DNA of 64,000 nucleotides. Origin: Escherichia virus TH57. Below the pieces are notes generated by a model. That model had not been told where the DNA came from, searched no databases, and saw nothing but the letters and a program-made list of their open reading frames with translations. The stretch lies in the sequence record MT446422.1; one strand, given 5' to 3'. Made by a program: the position numbers and the translations under genes. Position 1 is the first letter of the stretch. Each line of letters starts with the position of its first letter. Shown one piece after another: positions 5,199 through 59,027 of this stretch.

Positions 5199-5203
5199 AT
5201 TCT

Positions 5204-5229
5204 AAGGACCCTTCGGGGTCCTTTTTTTA
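5204..5229 (+). terminator. rho-independent terminator
   Basis: GGACCC-TTCG-GGGTCC hairpin followed by TTTTTTT. Confidence 0.75.
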
Positions 5230-5242
5230 TTTTAAAAAGTAG

Positions 5243-5311
5243 TGTACGACCAGATGGTTATGAGGCATAATGATTCCATACTGAGTTACCAAATAAAAAC
5301 TGGAGAATAAA
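5243..5311 (+). promoter_or_regulatory. early promoter cassette, CCATACTGAGTTACC leader type
   Basis: AAAAAGTAGTGTAC -35 region, 17-bp spacer, CATAAT, conserved leader GATTCCATACTGAGTTACCAAA..CTGGAGAATAAA ATG. Confidence 0.6.
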
Positions 5312-5518
5312 ATGTTAGAATTAATCAAAGCTGCTGGTGAAAAAGGTCTGATGGTTAACACTCGTGACCCTGAACAACGTCAAGCATTTGGTGAGTTAAA
5401 AGCCAAAGGTCTGGTTAAAGCATCCCTTGGTATTGGCAATGCTTTGCGTGTGACTTTGACCCCTGCAGGTAAAGCAATGTTCTTCCCTAAACCATTACCA
5501 AAACGTCGTCGCAAGTGA
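5312..5518 (+). CDS. hypothetical small basic protein
   Basis: 68 aa, C-terminal KRRRK, directly after promoter cassette. Confidence 0.5.
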   Translation: MLELIKAAGEKGLMVNTRDPEQRQAFGELKAKGLVKASLGIGNALRVTLTPAGKAMFFPKPLPKRRRK

Positions 5519-5524
5519 GGAATT

Positions 5525-5827
5525 ATGAAAAAGTATGAAATTGACATGATTGATGCATGTCTTAAATCTGCTGACCATTTTAAGTTGAAAATGCACAAGT
5601 TAAGAGGAATGGTCAAAACTCCAGAAGAGAAGAAACGTTATGCTCTGAAGGAGAAATGTAAAGCTCTTATCATGATGGATAAGTTGCAAATAGTCGCCGC
5701 AGAAGCTCACAGGACACGTAAAGCTGAGGCCCTTAGTGTTTATATGGCAGAACAGCTACAGCGCGCACAGCAAGCCGTTAAGAGCGCGTGGTTCAGTGGT
5801 GAAAATACTGAAAGAACTTTTAATTAA
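5525..5827 (+). CDS. hypothetical protein
   Basis: 100-aa ORF with GAGG SD. Confidence 0.5.
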   Translation: MKKYEIDMIDACLKSADHFKLKMHKLRGMVKTPEEKKRYALKEKCKALIMMDKLQIVAAEAHRTRKAEALSVYMAEQLQRAQQAVKSAWFSGENTERTFN

Positions 5828-5829
5828 AT

Positions 5830-5896
5830 GTGTACATAGTATGGGGATAGCCGTATAATGTTCCCATACTGAGTTACCAAATAACTGGAGAATAAA
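5830..5896 (+). promoter_or_regulatory. early promoter cassette, CCATACTGAGTTACC leader type
   Basis: GTGTAC, 18 bp, TATAAT, then TTCCCATACTGAGTTACCAAATAACTGGAGAATAAA ATG. Confidence 0.6.
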
Positions 5897-6421
5897 ATGG
5901 AAGCCAAATCAATCTTTAATCTGATTAATTACAATAATGGTAATTTTAAATCAGAAGCACAAAGTAAGTTCTTTAATGATGTTGCTTGTGTGGGTGAGAT
6001 TACAGTATCAGGTGGTCAGACTTATAAAAACGCCTGGAACTGGATTGTGACTGTTGATTCAGTTGGTATTGTTGATGTATATAAAAACACCAATAAAAAT
6101 CGCTCCTTGTTCTGGTCAAGAGAGACTAATGCTGAGTATCAGGCAACAAGAGCAAAGAAAAATATGCCTACTGAATCTGATGTACAGAACATCAAATCAG
6201 ATATCCAATATTATGATGGTCTGATTGCTGAACAACAAGCGGTGCTTGATAAGTTCAATGAAATCAAAGCATGTAAAGAGATTCCTGAATTCATGCGGGA
6301 ATCGGTTAATGAACAATACAATCTCACTTCAGAGCGTATTGAAACCTATACCAAACAAAGAGCAGAGCGCCAGGTACTCCTTCAGAAGTTTGAAGAGCGT
6401 TTAAAGACGGTTCACGCATAA
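5897..6421 (+). CDS. hypothetical protein
   Basis: 174-aa ORF after promoter cassette. Confidence 0.55.
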   Translation: MEAKSIFNLINYNNGNFKSEAQSKFFNDVACVGEITVSGGQTYKNAWNWIVTVDSVGIVDVYKNTNKNRSLFWSRETNAEYQATRAKKNMPTESDVQNIKSDIQYYDGLIAEQQAVLDKFNEIKACKEIPEFMRESVNEQYNLTSERIETYTKQRAERQVLLQKFEERLKTVHA

Positions 6422-6423
6422 AC

Positions 6424-6447
6424 GCTTTATACCAAGGATGGTATAAT
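6424..6447 (+). promoter_or_regulatory. putative middle-type promoter
   Basis: GCTTTAT MotA-box-like element about 12 bp upstream of TGGTATAAT. Confidence 0.4.
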
Positions 6448-6484
6448 GGTTCTGACCTTTGATTAATCTATTGAGGAAATTATT

Positions 6485-7333
6485 ATGTCACAAGCAATTA
6501 ATGAAATTCGTTCTGAAGTTAAAAAAGTTGTTAAATTCGGGCGTATTCCAAGCACTAAAGATGTGGTTTTAAATGTTCTATATATGATGTGGAATAAGTT
6601 CAATGTTTGTACTAATTCCGCTGAATTCACTAAAATCTTTGAAAAGACCAACGGTCTTCTTACATTAGAAGACCGAGTCATGAAATCTCTTCATCGTTCA
6701 GGTATGTTGTCTCGTGCTAATGCCAAAATTATTCTTAAAAAATATAACAAAGGTTACGACCTTTATGGTCGTGCGATTAGCACCATGACGTTTGATGAAG
6801 TGGTTAAAGACCTTTGGAAAAACCAGCGCCGTTTATTGGCATTAGGTGCTCGTTTAGCAAGCGGTCAAGATAAACAAATGACCTTTAAAACCAATAATTC
6901 TTTAGATTATAAACTATTTAATGTTATTAAAGGTCAAAATGAAGGCGAATACAGTATTTCTTCTTTTAGTGGATGTCAATACGAAAACTGGAAATTCCAC
7001 CTCCGTTTGGCTTTGTCTGAACTCGAATGTCACGGGGTTCTTACCTTTTATGATGTTAAAACTGGAGGCGTCCAGCGTATTAAATTATGTCAAATTAAAG
7101 ACCGAGTTGAAGTCGAGAGCCCCATTGAACAAGCTCCTAAAATGGAACCTGTTCCAGTGCGAAGCAATGAAAAATATTCAGAGCAAATTGAGCTTTTCAC
7201 TAAACAGATTGAAGAGCTCAACATCACCATCCAGCAGCAAGATGATGAAATTTTCCGTCTGTCGGGACTGAACAATGCAGCGAAAGCCGAACGTCAAAAA
7301 CTGATGAACGTTATTGAATTGCTTAAGGATTAA
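6485..7333 (+). CDS. hypothetical protein with C-terminal coiled-coil
   Basis: 282 aa; C-terminal ~45 aa heptad-like (QIEELNITIQQQDDEIFRL...). Confidence 0.55.
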   Translation: MSQAINEIRSEVKKVVKFGRIPSTKDVVLNVLYMMWNKFNVCTNSAEFTKIFEKTNGLLTLEDRVMKSLHRSGMLSRANAKIILKKYNKGYDLYGRAISTMTFDEVVKDLWKNQRRLLALGARLASGQDKQMTFKTNNSLDYKLFNVIKGQNEGEYSISSFSGCQYENWKFHLRLALSELECHGVLTFYDVKTGGVQRIKLCQIKDRVEVESPIEQAPKMEPVPVRSNEKYSEQIELFTKQIEELNITIQQQDDEIFRLSGLNNAAKAERQKLMNVIELLKD

Positions 7334-7334
7334 T

Positions 7335-7550
7335 ATGACCATTTTGATTATCAGTATTATTTTTGGTTATCTTTTGACGGGATTTATTACTACCCTGTTG
7401 CTCCACAAGTTTGATAGTCCCTACGAAAGTGGGGACGAGTATGATGCGGTGTTCACAACATTTTGCTGGCCTATATTCTGGGTAGTCGCTGTTATAATGT
7501 GTGTGACCTGGCCTTTTGCTAAACTCTATGAAAAATTACTTGGAATATGA
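7335..7550 (+). CDS. hypothetical small membrane protein (CWP-motif family)
   Basis: 71 aa from ATG right after upstream stop; two TM segments; CWPIFWVV motif shared with 10288..10455. Confidence 0.5.
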   Translation: MTILIISIIFGYLLTGFITTLLLHKFDSPYESGDEYDAVFTTFCWPIFWVVAVIMCVTWPFAKLYEKLLGI

Positions 7551-39196: not shown

Positions 39197-39342
39197 CACA
39201 AGAAGATGCTGAACGCCGAGCAAAAGAAGCACTGGATTTGCTTTTGAAAATTGGCAGTAAAATGATGGAAGAAAACGAAAAGTACATCAAGGAAAATAAA
39301 GTTCCTGATGGTCCATTAGTCGGTAAGAGGAAAACATTATGA
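39193..39342 (+). CDS. hypothetical small protein
   Basis: 49 aa, ATGA overlaps on both sides; not in track. Confidence 0.35.
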
Positions 39343-39827
39343 AAGTATATGAATTAGAATTCTATGTCCGTGATTCGGCAGGTCAAACACGACCTTACGA
39401 TGCTACCGCATGCCTTATCATGGTTTACAATGGCATGGATTCGGTTACTGAGTTAGAAACAAAATTAATGAACCTGACGATGCCAGAAAATGTCATGATG
39501 AAGGTATTTCATAACAAAAACGTTAATGTGGCTGAAGGGTGTCCGTTTACTGTTTCTGAAGCTCTGCACATCAAAGGCTATCGTCACCCGGACCCTTATG
39601 CAGAAGGTACTGCGGATATTTTCTATAAAGATACCGATAGAATTTCAGAAGAACGCCTTAAAGGTCGCACATATCTGATTTCCACTACCGACGACCTTGC
39701 TGAAGTTGAACGTCAGATTTGGAAGCACTTTGATATTGGCTTACGCTTTACTTTAACAGAAGAAGCTATTCAAGATACTAAAATGCGTGCTCATATGTAT
39801 GGTTACGGTCCGATTGGTGGTTACTAA
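39339..39827 (+). CDS. hypothetical protein (possible mrh by position)
   Basis: 162-aa ORF upstream of the modB/modA-like pair. Confidence 0.5.
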
Positions 39828-40006
39828 TGGATTTATTTGAACTTTTTGAAGAGCCTAAAGCTCATACGGAAGCCCGTGTGGACCTAGTTGACGAACTTGA
39901 TGCGATTATACAGAAGCACGGTTTTAGTCTCCCAATGGAAGTTCTACGCGACCTGGCCTCATATTACGACGACCCACCTCCATGGGCACCATGGGTGAAA
40001 CAATGA
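39827..40006 (+). CDS. hypothetical small acidic protein
   Basis: 59 aa; not in track. Confidence 0.35.
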   Translation: MDLFELFEEPKAHTEARVDLVDELDAIIQKHGFSLPMEVLRDLASYYDDPPPWAPWVKQ

Positions 40007-40236
40007 ACTGGTTAACAAATATCCCCACATCGGCACTGGATATCGACCGTAAACATGCTCATAAGGAAATTGAGCAACAAAAAATTAATCGTTTACAAAG
40101 GCTTAAGACTGAATCCGAGACAATTAAAGTCAAACGCCCGACAGAATCGAAAAGTTCTTACTCATCATATCAATCTCCGATTGGCATGGCCGTAGACATT
40201 GCAGTCTTTGGCACCCCACTTGGAGTATTTAAGTAG
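40003..40236 (+). CDS. hypothetical protein
   Basis: 77 aa from in-frame ATG; contains SSYSSY. Confidence 0.45.
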   Translation: MNWLTNIPTSALDIDRKHAHKEIEQQKINRLQRLKTESETIKVKRPTESKSSYSSYQSPIGMAVDIAVFGTPLGVFK

Positions 40237-40292
40237 TTTACTTACTCCCCTCCTAATGACATAATGGTCTTTCTTACAACAGAGAGGCCATT

Positions 40293-40853
40293 ATGAACAT
40301 CATCAAATCTGATACCGAACCCAACCAGTTAAAATTTAGTGAAATGGAGATAGCTTCATTATTTGAGTGCCGTACAGCAAAGGTTGATAAGACCTTGCAT
40401 TCAAATGTCAACTCAATCATCAAGTCAAGGTTATCTATACCCGATACAGTCTTGTATCGTGGGGTAACCCAGCAAGAGATTGATTTATTAGATGAAGCAA
40501 AAGAATCAATGCAACCTTTTGAATTTGGAAGGATAACCTCCTTTACAGAAGACTATGGTATTGCCAGGGATTTTGCTGCAATGGAATATGTATCAAGGAC
40601 TATCATCAGATTGAATCATACAAAAGCTTTTTGTTACCATGATGCGATGCGCAAAATTGCGCTTGATGTTCCACTGGAATTCTTCAATACTGCTTCTGGT
40701 TCCGAACAGGCGGCAACGTTAAGACGTGAAGAATATATGGACATGATTGATTCTGAGCTTGAATGGTTTGTTCCAGCTGACCAGAAATTCGTGATAGTTG
40801 ATGCTGGATTTGTTGGTGATTATTATGTTCTTGACTGTGTACAAGAGCAATAA
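40293..40853 (+). CDS. modB: ADP-ribosyltransferase, ModB-like
   Basis: 186 aa; R (LYRG), S-x-T (TSFTED) and E-x-E (SELEWF) motifs; synteny with srd and dda. Confidence 0.6.
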   Translation: MNIIKSDTEPNQLKFSEMEIASLFECRTAKVDKTLHSNVNSIIKSRLSIPDTVLYRGVTQQEIDLLDEAKESMQPFEFGRITSFTEDYGIARDFAAMEYVSRTIIRLNHTKAFCYHDAMRKIALDVPLEFFNTASGSEQAATLRREEYMDMIDSELEWFVPADQKFVIVDAGFVGDYYVLDCVQEQ

Positions 40854-40897
40854 GACACGTTAATATGTTCCTATCAACTACTGATGAGGATAATAAA
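40837..40897 (+). promoter_or_regulatory. early promoter cassette, CATCAACTACTGA leader type
   Basis: GTGTAC inside the upstream gene's 3' end, 18 bp, TAATAT, CTATCAACTACTGATGAGGA leader. Confidence 0.5.
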
Positions 40898-41512
40898 ATG
40901 CTGTACACTGATGATGTTTTGAATGGAATTATTGACACTGCTGCTTCTAGTGAGTCTTTTCGTGACCAATGTCAAGCGGAGATTGATGCTCTTTATACAG
41001 ATGAAGAGCAATCGGTACTCTGGCAGTGTATGGAAAATAAACCCGACTTGATTCAAGAAGACTTAACCAGGATTATCCGCAACAATCTGAATACTGCACC
41101 GCCTGCGGCATTGTTCCGTGGTATATCAAAGAAAACTATGGAATACCTGGAAGATTTAAGATATGTTGGTGCGACAATTGAGTTCAACCGTGTAATGAGT
41201 TTTTCCAGGGACTGGCAGGTTGCAAGAAATTTTGCATCATACAGTTTCTATGGCACAAGGAACATTTTCTGTATAAACAATGCACCATATGCGTATAACT
41301 ATCAGGAAGCAATCTTCAAAATGATTTGCGGTGCTCCTCCTGAAGAGTTCAATGGTGCATATCCAGAAGCAACCAGGAAGTCAAACTTGCACCTGGTTAA
41401 TGATGAAGATGAGTTTATGTTTCCCGCTGGGACTACGCTCCGCGTAGACTTGATTGAAACACACCCATTGAATAACCTGTATACTGTTTGGCATTTAACT
41501 GTTTTGAACTAA
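40898..41512 (+). CDS. modA: ADP-ribosyltransferase, ModA-like
   Basis: 204 aa; R (LFRG), S-x-S (MSFSRD), E-x-E (DEDEFMF). Confidence 0.6.
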   Translation: MLYTDDVLNGIIDTAASSESFRDQCQAEIDALYTDEEQSVLWQCMENKPDLIQEDLTRIIRNNLNTAPPAALFRGISKKTMEYLEDLRYVGATIEFNRVMSFSRDWQVARNFASYSFYGTRNIFCINNAPYAYNYQEAIFKMICGAPPEEFNGAYPEATRKSNLHLVNDEDEFMFPAGTTLRVDLIETHPLNNLYTVWHLTVLN

Positions 41513-41572
41513 CCAAAGACCTTAGAACCATTATACACAGTAAAAATAAAAGCGTTAAAGGTGAAAAAGTAG

Positions 41573-41645
41573 TGTACATAAAAGATGAATAGTATATAAT
41601 GATTCCGTACTGAGTTATTCACGTCCGTAAGATGAGAAAAATATC
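41573..41645 (+). promoter_or_regulatory. early promoter cassette, CCATACTGAGTTA leader variant
   Basis: AAAAAGTAGTGTAC, TATAAT, GATTCCGTACTGAGTTATTC leader. Confidence 0.55.
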
Positions 41646-42392
41646 ATGACTTTATCAAAAACCAAAACACTGAAAGTTAAACGTCGTCTGGAACACACTC
41701 AAGCTTCTGCTAAACGTCGTGGTAAGGACTTTAACCTGGATTTCAATTACCTGGTTAACATTCTTGACCAAAAAGTTTGTGCTTATTCTGGTGAAGCATT
41801 TAATAACTCTGTTGAAGACGAGAAGTTATCATTAGAACGTTTTAACAATGATATTGGTTATATCAAGGGTAATGTTATTCCTGTTAAAAAGAAATACAAC
41901 ACCATGCGTTCTGATTGGTCCCTGGATGAGCTTAAACAACGTCGTGATGATGTTGCTGTAAAAATTGCTCGCCCGTCCGCCAAGAAGATTGAAAAGTTAA
42001 ATCTGACTTCAGAGAAATGGGAACAGATTAAAAAGGCATATAACCATATAAAGAACATTCAGCACAAACGTGAGAATCGCGTTAAGCATTATGCTCAAAT
42101 GAGTAAATCAGAACAGTCCAAAGAAAACCAATTAAAAATGGTTGCTTTGAAGGCTCGCATTGATGGTTCCCGTGTTGCGGAAGGTCATGAGCTTACTAAA
42201 TTGAATGTTTTGCTCAAAGGCAATGACTGGAAAGTTACCAAGAAATTAACTGATGCTGAAACGCTTTTTGATTGCTATGATAAAATCATTCAAGGTCTTG
42301 AGCGTTTTGAGAAGATTGGTTTTATTGGTAAATTAAAACTGAAACGTGGTTTGCCTTTGAACGCGTCAATTTTTAAACTGATTAGAGGTTAA
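41646..42392 (+). CDS. srd: Srd-like protein (positional)
   Basis: 248 aa basic helical protein; position next to dda.1 and dda; size matches T4 Srd. Confidence 0.5.
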   Translation: MTLSKTKTLKVKRRLEHTQASAKRRGKDFNLDFNYLVNILDQKVCAYSGEAFNNSVEDEKLSLERFNNDIGYIKGNVIPVKKKYNTMRSDWSLDELKQRRDDVAVKIARPSAKKIEKLNLTSEKWEQIKKAYNHIKNIQHKRENRVKHYAQMSKSEQSKENQLKMVALKARIDGSRVAEGHELTKLNVLLKGNDWKVTKKLTDAETLFDCYDKIIQGLERFEKIGFIGKLKLKRGLPLNASIFKLIRG

Positions 42393-46046: not shown

Positions 46047-46052
46047 GTTTAG

Positions 46053-46123
46053 TGTACAAACTCTTGGGGTCGGAGTATAATGACCCCACTGGAGAATAAA
46101 CTTATTAACCAAGAGAGAAAATT
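46053..46123 (+). promoter_or_regulatory. early promoter cassette with inverted repeat around -10
   Basis: GTGTAC; GGGGTC-GGAGTATAAT-GACCCC; CACTGGAGAATAAA leader. Confidence 0.55.
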
Positions 46124-54955: not shown

Positions 54956-55019
54956 GTGTACATCAGTATGGAGTCTATGTATAATGATTCCATACTGAGT
55001 TACCAAACTGGAGAATAAA
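54956..55019 (+). promoter_or_regulatory. early promoter cassette, CCATACTGAGTTACC leader type
   Basis: AAAAAGTAGTGTAC, 18 bp, TATAAT, GATTCCATACTGAGTTACCAAACTGGAGAATAAA ATG; AGTATGGA...TCCATACT inverted repeat around -10. Confidence 0.6.
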
Positions 55020-56188: not shown

Positions 56189-56530
56189 ATGTCTAAATTA
56201 TTTTTTGGTAATGCCAATGTTATGTTCTTTAAGAACCTTAGTCTCCAAGATGCAGCTTTATGTAATCAAGGGCAGATTCCAGGGTTACATTTAAAAACTG
56301 TAATGAGCACAGATTTTGTTTTTGTTCAAGACCCTGATACAGGTTTTTACAGATTTATTAAATTCCGTATGTGCATGGACCCCGACTATCGCAATGCTTA
56401 CTATGTAAGTTATGAAAATGTTATTAAAGAATTACGTAATACCTATGGATATGCTTTGATAAACCTGAATAAGGTGTATAACGCTACTTGTTACACCCCC
56501 GAATTTATTTTAGAACAACTTCAAAAATAG
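56189..56530 (+). CDS. hypothetical protein
   Basis: 113-aa ORF with GAGGAAA SD. Confidence 0.5.
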   Translation: MSKLFFGNANVMFFKNLSLQDAALCNQGQIPGLHLKTVMSTDFVFVQDPDTGFYRFIKFRMCMDPDYRNAYYVSYENVIKELRNTYGYALINLNKVYNATCYTPEFILEQLQK

Positions 56531-56603
56531 TGTACAAACTCATGGGGTCAGAGTATAATGACCCCACTGGAGCACAAAACTTTAACTTACTGAGGAAATT
56601 AAT
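56530..56603 (+). promoter_or_regulatory. early promoter cassette with inverted repeat around -10
   Basis: GTGTAC; GGGGTCA-GAGTATAAT-GACCCC; CACTGGAGCACAAAAC leader. Confidence 0.55.
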
Positions 56604-57439: not shown

Positions 57440-58819
57440 ATGTCTGACGTTTTAAGTATGATGTCCAAACAGTTCAGTGATTCCATGGGGTCCCTTAACC
57501 CACGCAGTCTAAAAGACATTATTGATGTGGAAGCATTGTCATATGCTATCTACACTGTGGAAGGTCGTGCCATCCCAAACATGATTGATGGTTTTAAACC
57601 AGTTCACAGATTTGTTATGGCGAGAGCATTAGACCTGGCTCGTGGCGATAAGAATAAATTCCATAAGGTTGCCTCCATTGCAGGTGGCGTAGCTGATTAT
57701 GGTTATCACCATGGCGAAGCATCAGCGGAAGAAGCAACTTCTGGTCTGGTCGCAACATATAAAAATGAATACCCCATGTTTGATGGGCAAGGCAACTTTG
57801 GTTCCAGAATGGTGCCAGAAGCATCATCAGCTCGTTATGTATTCGCAAGGGTTTCAAAGAACTTTTATAACTTGTTTAAGGATACAGAATATGCTCCGGT
57901 CCATCCTGATGAAGAACATAAGCCTCCTGCTTTTTATCTTCCTGTTATTCCTACTGTATTACTTAACGCCACTTCTGGGATTGCTGTTGGCTTCGCTACT
58001 GATATTCTTCCTCATTCGTTCCAGGACGTCAAGGAAGCTGTTAAAGCTATCGTGGAAGGTCGTGAGCCGGTTGCTCCGAAAGTAAAATATCCAGAATTCC
58101 GTGGTGAAGTTGTTGAGCTGGAAGAGCCTGGTAAGTATGAGCTTCATGGCACGTACAAAATGACTTCCAGGACTCAAATGGAAATTACTGAAATCCCGGT
58201 CCAATGGAACCTGGAAAAGTATACAAGTAAAATCCTGGACCCACTGGAAGAGAAAGGTTTTATCACCTGGAAAGATAACTGTGGCGAGCATGGTTTTGGG
58301 TTTAAGATTAAATTCCGTAAGGAATACAAGCTGGATGGCACTGAAGAAGAAAATCATGAGAAAATCATGAAAGACTTTGGTCTGATTGAGAAGCTCTCCC
58401 AGAACTTAACTGTACTTAATCACAAAGGCAAATTGGCTGAATACACCAACACGCTTGACCTGATTCGCGATTTCGTTGATGTCCGTAAGACTTATGTCCA
58501 AGTGCGAATTGACAGTAAGATTAAAGAAACTGAAGCCGCGTTTAAACTGGCCCGAGCAAAAGTCTTCTTTATTAAAGAAGTGATTGATGGTAAGGTTGTT
58601 ATCCAGGGGAAACCTCGTAAGAAGTTGATTGAGGAGCTCCAGGCGAGTGAAATATATGGCGATTATGCAGAGAAGTTAGTGGCGATGAACATCTACCATA
58701 TGACCTCTGATGAAGCCAAGAAGCTTGCAGACGAAGCAAAGGCTAAGAAAGCCGAGCATGAGTACTGGAAGACAACTGATGTTAAAACTGAATACCTTAA
58801 TGATTTGGAGGCTCTATGA
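57440..58819 (+). CDS. 52: DNA topoisomerase II medium subunit gp52 (GyrA-like)
   Basis: 459 aa; matches recalled T4 gp52. Confidence 0.9.
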   Translation: MSDVLSMMSKQFSDSMGSLNPRSLKDIIDVEALSYAIYTVEGRAIPNMIDGFKPVHRFVMARALDLARGDKNKFHKVASIAGGVADYGYHHGEASAEEATSGLVATYKNEYPMFDGQGNFGSRMVPEASSARYVFARVSKNFYNLFKDTEYAPVHPDEEHKPPAFYLPVIPTVLLNATSGIAVGFATDILPHSFQDVKEAVKAIVEGREPVAPKVKYPEFRGEVVELEEPGKYELHGTYKMTSRTQMEITEIPVQWNLEKYTSKILDPLEEKGFITWKDNCGEHGFGFKIKFRKEYKLDGTEEENHEKIMKDFGLIEKLSQNLTVLNHKGKLAEYTNTLDLIRDFVDVRKTYVQVRIDSKIKETEAAFKLARAKVFFIKEVIDGKVVIQGKPRKKLIEELQASEIYGDYAEKLVAMNIYHMTSDEAKKLADEAKAKKAEHEYWKTTDVKTEYLNDLEAL

Positions 58820-58948: not shown

Positions 58949-59027
58949 GTGTACAAGTCCCTTGACCCGATGCATAATGATTCCATACTGAGTTACACAC
59001 TGAATCATAAAAATTTTGGAGAATAAA
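58949..59027 (+). promoter_or_regulatory. early promoter cassette, CCATACTGAGTTAC leader type
   Basis: AAAAAGTAGTGTAC, CATAAT, GATTCCATACTGAGTTACAC...GGAGAATAAA ATG. Confidence 0.55.

Follow-up and report, generated by a model that had tools for sequence, protein, structure and literature searches.

The two adjacent plus-strand genes at positions 40,293 to 41,512 very probably both encode stand-alone, arginine-specific mono-ADP-ribosyltransferases of the Mod family (R-S-E type) that would act early in infection to reprogram the host. We analyzed them within a stretch of 64,000 nucleotides (hereafter the window) from a Gaprivervirus, a T4-like coliphage, that shares 99.6% identity with phage TH54 and 94-96% with VR7 and VR20; the latter range also describes the nucleotide identity to VR7 and VR20 over the Mod locus itself. 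The gene pair is already known, as near-identical genomes carry a modB annotation for gene 1 and a modA annotation for gene 2, which stand in the GenBank records of Gaprivervirus vB_EcoM_VR7, VR20, VR25 and VR26. An earlier reading made from the sequence alone (the sequence-only reading) had placed the pair in the ModB/ModA position upstream of srd and dda, and synteny with T4, VR7 and VR20 bears this out: the order mrh-like/modA.3, modA.2, a small ORF, gene 1, gene 2, srd, dda.1, dda matches that of T4. Gene 2 lies directly upstream of srd, the position expected of a T4 ModA orthologue, and, as in T4, an early promoter lies between the end of gene 2 (41512) and the start of srd (41646). No Alt homologue was found in the window. 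The features of the locus are listed below; srd is among them for context, as the anchor of the synteny.

40175..40225, plus strand: stable hairpin just ahead of the gene 1 -35, within the 3' end of the small ORF (39982-40236)
40236..40265, plus strand: T4-type early (sigma-70) promoter-like site of gene 1, GTTTAC-18-CATAAT, preceded by TG
40293..40853, plus strand: gene 1 (ORF1), 186 aa, predicted Mod-family arginine-type mono-ADP-ribosyltransferase
40837..40866, plus strand: early promoter-like cassette of gene 2, GTGTAC-18-TAATAT then gttcctATCAACT
40898..41512 (preferred start), plus strand: gene 2 (ORF2), 204 aa, predicted Mod-family arginine-type mono-ADP-ribosyltransferase
41572..41600, plus strand: early promoter-like site of srd, GTGTAC-17-TATAAT, the downstream boundary of the Mod pair
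41646..42392, plus strand: srd, so named in VR7 and VR20; matches PHROG 1400 'Srd anti-sigma factor' at E = 2.5e-99

The sequence-only reading had described tandem mono-ADP-ribosyltransferase-type genes bearing the motifs LYRG, TSFTED and ELE in gene 1 and LFRG, MSFSRD and EDE in gene 2. Both ORFs exist on the plus strand, all six motifs are present, and family homology and fold agree with that description. When the two proteins were aligned with T4 ModA and ModB, the check that had been proposed, the R, S and ExE columns were invariant, as was the G; the same residues were invariant across 19 homologues. Motifs of this kind might nonetheless be a chance pattern in proteins that are not ADP-ribosyltransferases, and the bare ordered motif is indeed weak evidence: among the 51 window ORFs that reach 120 aa, 9 contain R..SxS/T..ExE, as do 216 of 2000 shuffled proteins (11%), while Pfam and NCBIfam scans returned only sub-threshold matches to DRAT, Sld5 and FTR (PF26816, Mod_ADP_RT, is newer than the Pfam copy scanned). 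The spaced form, [YFLW]RG..SxS/T..ExE, was found in 3 of the 51 ORFs, gene 1 and gene 2 among them, and in 2 of the 2000 shuffles. Homology was decisive. Both proteins matched PHROG 832 'RNA polymerase ADP-ribosylase' (8.7e-28 for gene 1, 1.8e-38 for gene 2), and PF26816 was precomputed on cluster representatives 99% identical to gene 1 (P0013) and 98% identical to gene 2 (P0001), as well as on the gene pairs of the metagenomic loci L013 and L015. BLASTP alignments spanning 150-173 residues related both proteins to T4 ModB (gene 1, 1e-23, 80 bits; gene 2, 5e-28, 92 bits) and to T4 ModA (gene 1, 1e-12, 50 bits; gene 2, 5e-19, 68 bits). This homology and the fold matches described next refute the chance explanation, to which we assign next to no probability.

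The predicted folds of both proteins match transferases of the R-S-E clade and thus the ADP-ribosyltransferase fold, with the ordered Arg on beta-1, the S-x-S/T on the next strand and the E-x-E before a strand conserved in each. The motif strands fall at residues 54-57, 82-85 and 157-160 in the gene 1 model, and at 71-75, 100-103 and 172-175 in that of gene 2. A PDB sequence search with the two proteins recovered no Mod relative and no solved Mod structure. The catalytic residues of gene 1 are R56 (codon 40458-40460), S83-F-T85 (S83, 40539-40541) and E155-L-E157 (40755-40757 and 40761-40763); those of gene 2, numbered from 40898, are R74 (41117-41119), S101-F-S103 (S101, 41198-41200) and E170-D-E172 (41405-41407 and 41411-41413). 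R56 and G57 of gene 1 align with R73 and G74 of T4 ModB, and the R73A,G74A mutant of ModB is catalytically inactive (PMC10468400).

Both genes are under purifying selection; identity to the VR7 counterparts is 94% for the gene 1 protein and 98% for that of gene 2. We asked whether one copy, most plausibly gene 1, is an inactive pseudo-enzyme or a decaying duplicate. Gene 1 is the shorter of the two, its model lacks the two N-terminal helices seen in gene 2 and has disordered residues 1-12, and its dN/dS is roughly double the gene 2 value. The gene 1 ratio is, however, still only 0.08-0.12 against VR7 and VR20 (compared to 0.04-0.09 for gene 2 within the genus), its fold is confidently predicted (pLDDT 87), and R56, G57, S83 and E155-x-E157 are intact and invariant. 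The gene 1 lineage moreover persists in three divergent phage groups, and an inactive or decaying copy is very improbable. Two further features of gene 1 were dismissed: a terminator-like hairpin at 40649-40662 was within chance expectation, and an apparent natural deletion in phage DCP80, which would leave only the first 22 codons, corresponds to a run of N, i.e. a scaffold gap.

We next considered how the pair might be expressed. Three sites, ahead of gene 1, gene 2 and srd, combine a GTTTAC-like -35, a 17-18 nt spacer and a TAnnAT-type -10 that are kept in relatives; the published T4/PST early-promoter consensus is TTTACW-N17-TAYWAT (PMC2839356, PMC4122927). The hexamers of the gene 1 site are invariant in VR20, VR7, JS98 and the metagenomic locus L013, and equivalents of the srd site occur in T4, JS98, L013 and p000v. 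That gene 2 has a promoter cassette of its own starting inside the 3' end of gene 1, as had been claimed, also held, with the GTGTAC -35 lying in the last codons of gene 1. When 127,882 positions were scored with an early-promoter matrix derived from the window itself, the cassette came 18th, with 12.9 bits. Two other candidates were rejected under the same matrix: TTGATG-17-TATTAT (40798-40826) scored -23 to -45 bits, and TTGACT (40831-40836) scored -36 bits and has no -10 at 16-19 nt.

Alternatively, the pair may form a single operon read from the promoter at 40236-40265, with gene 2 devoid of a working promoter and perhaps translated from an ATG at 40865, which opens the longest form of ORF2 (40865-41512, plus strand, 215 aa). 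The -10 of the gene 2 cassette is weak (TAATAT; TAAGAT in VR7 and VR20), no A-rich, UP-like element was found upstream of it, a generic sigma-70 scan found sites no more numerous than in shuffles, and T4 modA, which overlaps modB by ATGA, is expressed with no promoter between the genes. Against this, the hexamers and 18-nt spacing are kept in VR7, VR20, JS98, L013 and L015 while the spacer itself diverges, Mosigvirus p000v has this cassette ahead of its only Mod gene, and the rank of the site in the window is high. The upstream ATG has no Shine-Dalgarno, sits within the -10 hexamer of the cassette, and is out of frame in L013 (counted on the junction alignment). Position 40898, in contrast, has a GAGG (40886-40889) 8 nt upstream, its equivalent is the annotated gene 2 start in VR7, VR20 and JS98, and the gene 2 homologues all start MLY... 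For these reasons, 40898 is probably the true start of gene 2. Taken together, these findings make a single operon unlikely and favor a separate early promoter for each gene.

The locus resembles the promoter-stem-loop (PeSL) cassettes of T4-type phages (Arbiol 2010, PMC2839356; Comeau 2014, PMC4122927) in that repeated early-promoter cassettes flank variable genes and that a stem-loop and promoter lie upstream of gene 1. The hairpin at 40175..40225 has a folding energy of -22.1 kcal/mol (z = -3.09), with none of 200 shuffles as stable, and together with the gene 1 promoter it forms a PeSL-like arrangement. The site between the Mod genes differs from a PeSL, having no stem-loop (z = 0.13) and lying partly within coding sequence, and is thus a bare promoter rather than a full PeSL; a stem-loop was likewise absent before the srd promoter (z = -0.63).

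The names modB and modA imply that gene 1 is the orthologue of T4 ModB, acting by modification and RNAylation on ribosomal proteins S1 and L2, EF-Tu and trigger factor, and gene 2 that of T4 ModA, ADP-ribosylating Arg265 on both alpha subunits of RNA polymerase. To place the two proteins, we assembled 108 Mod representatives by exhaustive profile search (word-indexed searches gave 12, 2 and 17) and built neighbor-joining trees of 15 and 68 sequences, whose deep nodes had bootstrap values below 55%. Since phmmer detected no similarity between the Mod proteins and T4 Alt, a jumbo-phage homologue or midpoint rooting took the place of an Alt outgroup. Gene order as in T4, the better match of gene 1 to T4 ModB than to ModA (80 versus 50 bits), and the 15-sequence tree, in which T4 ModA joined the gene 2 clade with only 52.5% bootstrap, speak for a one-to-one correspondence. 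Yet T4 ModB is the better match for gene 2 as well (92 bits, compared to 68 bits for ModA), and the grouping of gene 2 with T4 ModA was not recovered with 68 sequences, where T4 ModA, together with P0037 and P0048, occupies a long branch of its own. That tree splits T4 ModA, T4 ModB, JS98 modB, gene 1 and gene 2 into five lineages, and its deep nodes lack support; gene 1 did not group with T4 ModB, which lies elsewhere with joining nodes of at most 8%. Many genera, in addition, have a single Mod gene, and the two-gene state therefore need not be ancestral. One-to-one orthology is thus not supported by the trees and seems doubtful to us, so the T4 targets (RNA polymerase alpha; rS1/RNAylation) are not transferable by name. 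Judged from these comparisons, modB and modA label positions here, as they do elsewhere outside T4, and not demonstrated orthologues of the T4 enzymes; the family itself divides into several deep lineages.

Two placements were well supported. Gene 2 formed a clade with JS98 (Dhakavirus) modA and the Mosigvirus Mod proteins at 100% bootstrap, whereas gene 1 grouped only with the metagenomic proteins P0014, P0034 and P0035 (87-100%), and its lineage is found in three divergent phage groups. Gene 1 and JS98 modB share ~27% identity when read from the multiple alignment and 32% when compared by BLASTP, against 65% for gene 2 and JS98 modA. Likewise, gene 2 is equally diverged (64.7%) in L013 and JS98, but the protein of the upstream slot is 60% identical in L013 and 32% in JS98; the stretch in which nucleotide identity to JS98 falls to 32-56% runs precisely from one promoter site to the other. 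On this phylogenetic evidence, we take gene 2 to represent a conserved 'core' Mod lineage adjoining srd, and gene 1 a separate, faster-evolving lineage whose upstream slot has a promoter cassette on either side. Phage lineages appear to have exchanged this slot at the cassettes. We tentatively suggest, as a possible account that we hold at somewhat less than an even chance, that gene 1 is a distinct lineage swapped in by non-orthologous replacement with respect to Dhakavirus and T4, that its host target is neither RNA polymerase alpha nor rS1, and that the locus is an exchangeable effector slot rather than a fixed ModB/ModA pair. With trees built by neighbor joining only and deep bootstrap values below 55%, extreme divergence of gene 1 instead of slot replacement may also explain the pattern.

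With Mod-family enzymes as our preferred explanation for both genes, each would be read from its own sigma-70-type early promoter and translated from its own Shine-Dalgarno (GAGG at 40284-40287 for gene 1), and the unmodified RNA polymerase of the host should thereby yield both products during the first minutes after infection. If the two proteins work as T4 ModA and ModB do, three elements in each would form a cleft that accepts NAD+ and perhaps also NAD-capped RNA: the beta-1 Arg (R56 of gene 1 and R74 of gene 2), the S-x-S/T strand and the E-x-E loop. The second Glu of the E-x-E is predicted to catalyze transfer and the first to direct it to arginine, such that ADP-ribose would be passed to host transcription or translation proteins and the cell reprogrammed. 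Net charge and pI were considered as a hint of NAD-RNA use and rejected, because all Mod proteins are acidic and these properties do not discriminate.

As expected early host-takeover enzymes of a T4-like phage, the two genes were recognizable from raw sequence. ModB-type RNAylation is of current interest, and its structural determinants are not understood (PMC10468400). Since the family splits into lineages, a natural panel of Mod proteins that includes gene 1 and gene 2 provides a ready comparative set in which to look for the residues that steer an enzyme to RNA polymerase or to the ribosome, and to NAD or to NAD-RNA.

Compared to known systems, the closest are modB and modA of VR7, VR20, VR25 and VR26, which are the same genes with the same neighbors and differ in nothing material; we found no experimental work on the Mod genes of these four phages, whose names rest on T4 similarity only. 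In T4, ModA and ModB are early proteins (PMC9697503). T4 ModB modifies rS1, EF-Tu and trigger factor and RNAylates rS1 and rL2 (PMC10468400); gene 1 has the family, fold, R-S-ExE alignment and upstream position in common with it, but is ~20 residues shorter at the N terminus, and at 30-34% (gene 1) and 36% (gene 2) identity neither protein is its supported sister. T4 ModA attaches ADP-ribose to Arg265 on each of the two alpha subunits of RNA polymerase (PMC2988021); gene 2 shares its family, aligned motifs and slot immediately upstream of the srd promoter, but identity is 29-35%, and gene 2 has a candidate promoter where none of its own was found for T4 modA. The close relatives of gene 2 are the Mosigvirus Mod genes (e.g. 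p000v) and Dhakavirus JS98 modA, with 53-65% identity and the same promoter cassette with its ATCAAC leader. Mosigvirus differs in having no second, upstream Mod gene, and JS98 in that its upstream gene comes from another Mod lineage. Finally, the R-S-E toxins (C3 exoenzyme, VIP2, iota toxin Ia, CDTa, Certhrax, HopU1 and Tre1) have the same catalytic fold and motif order as the two proteins described here at only 10-15% identity, and, in contrast to these toxins, the Mod proteins are stand-alone phage early proteins without delivery or binding domains.

The window derives from a T4-like coliphage, a member of Gaprivervirus. Over 40000-41800 its identity is 99.6% to Escherichia virus TH54 and 94-96% to vB_EcoM_VR7, VR20, VR25 and VR26. 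On the + strand, two neighbouring ORFs correspond to genes annotated in VR7 and VR20: 40293-40853 (186 aa) to modB, and 40865-41512 (at its longest 215 aa) to modA. The pair is confirmed here and was already known, being annotated in near-identical public genomes; we refine the earlier reading in two respects, where gene 2 starts and the names modA and modB, which are positional. The features discussed below are as follows:

39982-40236, + strand: small ORF between modA.2 and gene 1, 84 aa (phrog_14077, E = 1.1e-46)
40236-40265, + strand: promoter-like site of gene 1, a cassette similar to that of gene 2
40293-40853, + strand: gene 1, 186 aa, Mod-family ADP-ribosyltransferase
40837-40866, + strand: promoter-like site of gene 2, GTGTAC (40837-40842), 18 nt, TAATAT (40861-40866), then gttcctatcaact; 12.9 bits
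40898-41512, + strand: gene 2, 204 aa from the preferred start, Mod-family ADP-ribosyltransferase
41572-41600, + strand: promoter-like site of srd, a similar cassette
41646-42392, + strand: srd (PHROG 1400)

The sequence-only reading had placed both genes in the ModB/ModA position upstream of srd and dda, and gene order at the locus indeed agrees with T4. In VR7 and VR20 the pair is preceded by mrh.2, mrh.1, srh, modA.4, modA.3, modA.2 and the small ORF, and followed by srd, dda.1, dda and dexA; profile matches in the window identified T4_MRH (E = 8.8e-47), Srd (E = 2.5e-99), dda.1 (Phage_Y01A, E = 1.6e-26) and dda (Dda SH3 domain, E = 3.1e-34).

The surroundings of the pair vary among relatives. 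The 84-aa ORF is annotated in VR7 and VR20, conserved at 66-73% nucleotide identity and unannotated in JS98 (a Dhakavirus), and missing from T4 and from the metagenomic T4-like contig L013. A single T4_MRH match was present in the examined part of the window (39339-39827, annotated modA.3 / Mrh in relatives); two adjoining T4_MRH-family genes lie upstream of the Mod pair in L013 (1883-2760) and in a second metagenomic contig, L015 (1306-2152). Over its N-terminal 100-160 residues, Srd also matched endonuclease (4e-20), HNH endonuclease (2.9e-17) and endonuclease VII (7.1e-09) PHROGs, and mid-srd (41939-42238) is a divergence trough relative to both JS98 and L013 (43-49% nucleotide identity). 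Neither tRNA or tmRNA genes nor Rfam families at the gathering threshold were found in the whole window (1-64000).

All of the ADP-ribosyltransferase motifs quoted for the two genes were found in the sequence. On its own, the ordered pattern R..SxS/T..ExE is uninformative: 9 of 51 ORFs of the window contain it, as do 11% of shuffled proteins. A spaced version with an aromatic-R-G motif was limited to 3 of the 51 ORFs, two of them genes 1 and 2, and 0.1% of shuffles. The third ORF matching [YFLW]RG..SxS/T..ExE (57440-58819, + strand, 459 aa) was taken as a chance match. The assignment rests on homology, not on the bare motif. Genes 1 and 2 matched PHROG 832, 'RNA polymerase ADP-ribosylase' (8.7e-28 and 1.8e-38, respectively), T4 ModB (BLASTP, 1e-23 and 5e-28) and T4 ModA (1e-12 and 5e-19), and Pfam PF26816 (Mod_ADP_RT) is precomputed on cluster representatives 98-99% identical to them. 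A Pfam copy predating PF26816 returned DRAT matches only, all sub-threshold. Since a profile search run exhaustively over 1.84 billion representatives recovered only 108 relatives at E <= 1e-3 (41 at E <= 1e-10), the Mod family is small.

In a 4-way alignment with T4 ModA and ModB, the catalytic motifs aligned and the Arg-Gly, Ser and Glu-x-Glu columns were invariant, as they were over 19 homologues. R56/G57 of gene 1 pair with R73/G74 of T4 ModB, whose R73A,G74A mutant is catalytically inactive and reduces the T4 burst 4- to 12-fold (PMC10468400). AlphaFold2 predicted both proteins with confidence (pLDDT 87.2, pTM 0.81 for gene 1; pLDDT 92.0, pTM 0.85 for gene 2). The gene 2 model matched C3bot, Certhrax, Tre1, CDTa and iota Ia in Foldseek (E ~1e-7), and the gene 1 model matched other Mod proteins among predicted viral structures at TM 0.72-0.82; a sequence search found no solved Mod-protein structure. 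In both models the motifs lie on predicted strands or at their edge: one strand carries the Arg, the following one, itself succeeded by a helix, carries S-x-S/T, and E-x-E immediately precedes a strand. This layout is the canonical R-S-E clade topology, in which E-x-E is a sign of arginine specificity. Within the genus, dN/dS was 0.08-0.12 for gene 1, 0.04-0.09 for gene 2 and 0.03-0.05 for srd, and both Mod genes are under purifying selection. Taken together, PHROG 832, BLASTP, the invariant columns and the fold support the mono-ADP-ribosyltransferase interpretation.

Activity, timing and targets are proposed by analogy with T4. Both proteins would be made early from promoters recognised by the host and, with NAD+ bound, would ADP-ribosylate host proteins at arginines. 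T4 ModA and ModB are early proteins (PMC9697503); ModA modifies the two alpha subunits of RNA polymerase at Arg265 and ModB targets translation proteins (PMC2988021), and ModB also joins NAD-capped RNAs to rS1 and rL2 (PMC10468400). Net charge and pI failed to discriminate between ModA-like and ModB-like roles of the window proteins.

The names modA and modB are positional. For both proteins, T4 ModB is a better-scoring match than T4 ModA. In bootstrapped neighbour-joining trees of 15 and 68 sequences, T4 ModA, T4 ModB and JS98 modB form separate lineages, the deep nodes being without support. Gene 2 groups at 100% support with JS98 modA (65% identity), the single Mosigvirus Mod (53-58%) and the protein P0011. 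Gene 1 clades with metagenomic proteins only, the nearest being P0014 (60% identity, 100% bootstrap), followed by P0034 and P0035 (~40%, 87%). One Mod gene precedes srd in Mosigvirus, Gelderlandvirus, Moonvirus, Karamvirus and two unclassified T4-like Klebsiella phages. Pairs of gene 1-type and gene 2-type occur in L013 (60% and 65% identity to the window, respectively) and L015 (39% and 53%). At equal gene 2 divergence (64.7%), identity of the upstream protein is 60% for L013 and 32% for JS98. Compared with JS98, the nucleotide sequence is 66-81% identical to the left of 40238, 32-56% identical over gene 1 and, rising again, 53-74% identical in gene 2, so that the trough is bounded by the two promoter sites. 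This pattern fits replacement of the upstream Mod gene between phage lineages, and promoter-cassette-mediated gene shuffling has been proposed for T4-type phages (PMC2839356, PMC4122927). Very fast divergence of gene 1 could instead be the cause, because the trees are simple and their deep nodes weak. Carrying replacement further, to gene 1 as a Mod lineage brought in by exchange and acting on a target of its own, is a tentative step that we consider somewhat doubtful.

Gene 2 probably starts at 40898, not 40865. ATG 40865 is without a Shine-Dalgarno and sits within the -10 hexamer of the intergenic promoter-like site, and ATG 40898 has GAGG 8 nt upstream, is equivalent to the annotated modA start in VR7, VR20 and JS98, and yields the MLY... 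N terminus common to all homologues. In L013 the upstream ATG falls in another reading frame (manual count on the alignment of the gene 1/gene 2 junction). These observations argue for gene 2 as 40898-41512 (204 aa).

The window contains T4-type early promoter cassettes, GT(G/T)TAC-N18-TAtAAT with a tCC.AT.A leader, 27 of them in + and 7 in - orientation. As the sequence-only reading had claimed, a gene 2 cassette begins in the 3' end of gene 1, its -35 falling in the last codons. Using a position matrix trained on 15 of the window's own cassettes, this site ranked 18th of 127,882 positions, and no minus-strand position reached 12.9 bits. In relatives the hexamers and 18-nt spacing are conserved and the spacer has diverged:

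VR7 and VR20: GTGTAC-18-TAAGAT
L013: GTGTAC-18-TATGAT
JS98: GTTTAC-18-TACTAT
L015: GTATAC-18-TAAGAT

The -10 is weak, no upstream stem-loop was found at this site and sites in a generic sigma-70 scan were not enriched relative to shuffles; it is therefore from conservation that we infer a putative function as an early promoter. A stable hairpin at 40175-40225, in the 3' end of the 84-aa ORF (-22.1 kcal/mol, z = -3.09), directly precedes the gene 1 promoter in a PeSL-like (promoter-stem-loop) arrangement.

Cassettes recur elsewhere in the window (for example 5242-5271, 58949-58978, 46052-46081, 56530-56559 and 54956-54985). Some pairs are near-identical over at least 50 nt: 5242/58949 and 46052/56530. 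In the second of these, GGGGTC..GACCCC arms flank the -10. Escherichia phage DCP80 (PQ671644), a Gaprivervirus record of 140,978 bp with gene 1 reduced to its first 66 nt (2501-2566), was rejected as a natural Mod-gene deletion: an N run follows the fragment, after which the sequence matches window 5201-7456, and the break comes from a gap in the scaffold or a wrong join at repeated promoter cassettes.

The recurring cassettes resemble mobile regulatory cassettes that have been described in T4-type phages; the published T4/PST consensus is TTTACW-N17-TAYWAT (PMC4122927). The single Mod gene of Mosigvirus p000v is preceded by the same cassette as gene 2, with an ATCAAC leader. In T4, unlike the window, modB and modA overlap by ATGA and have no promoter site between them.
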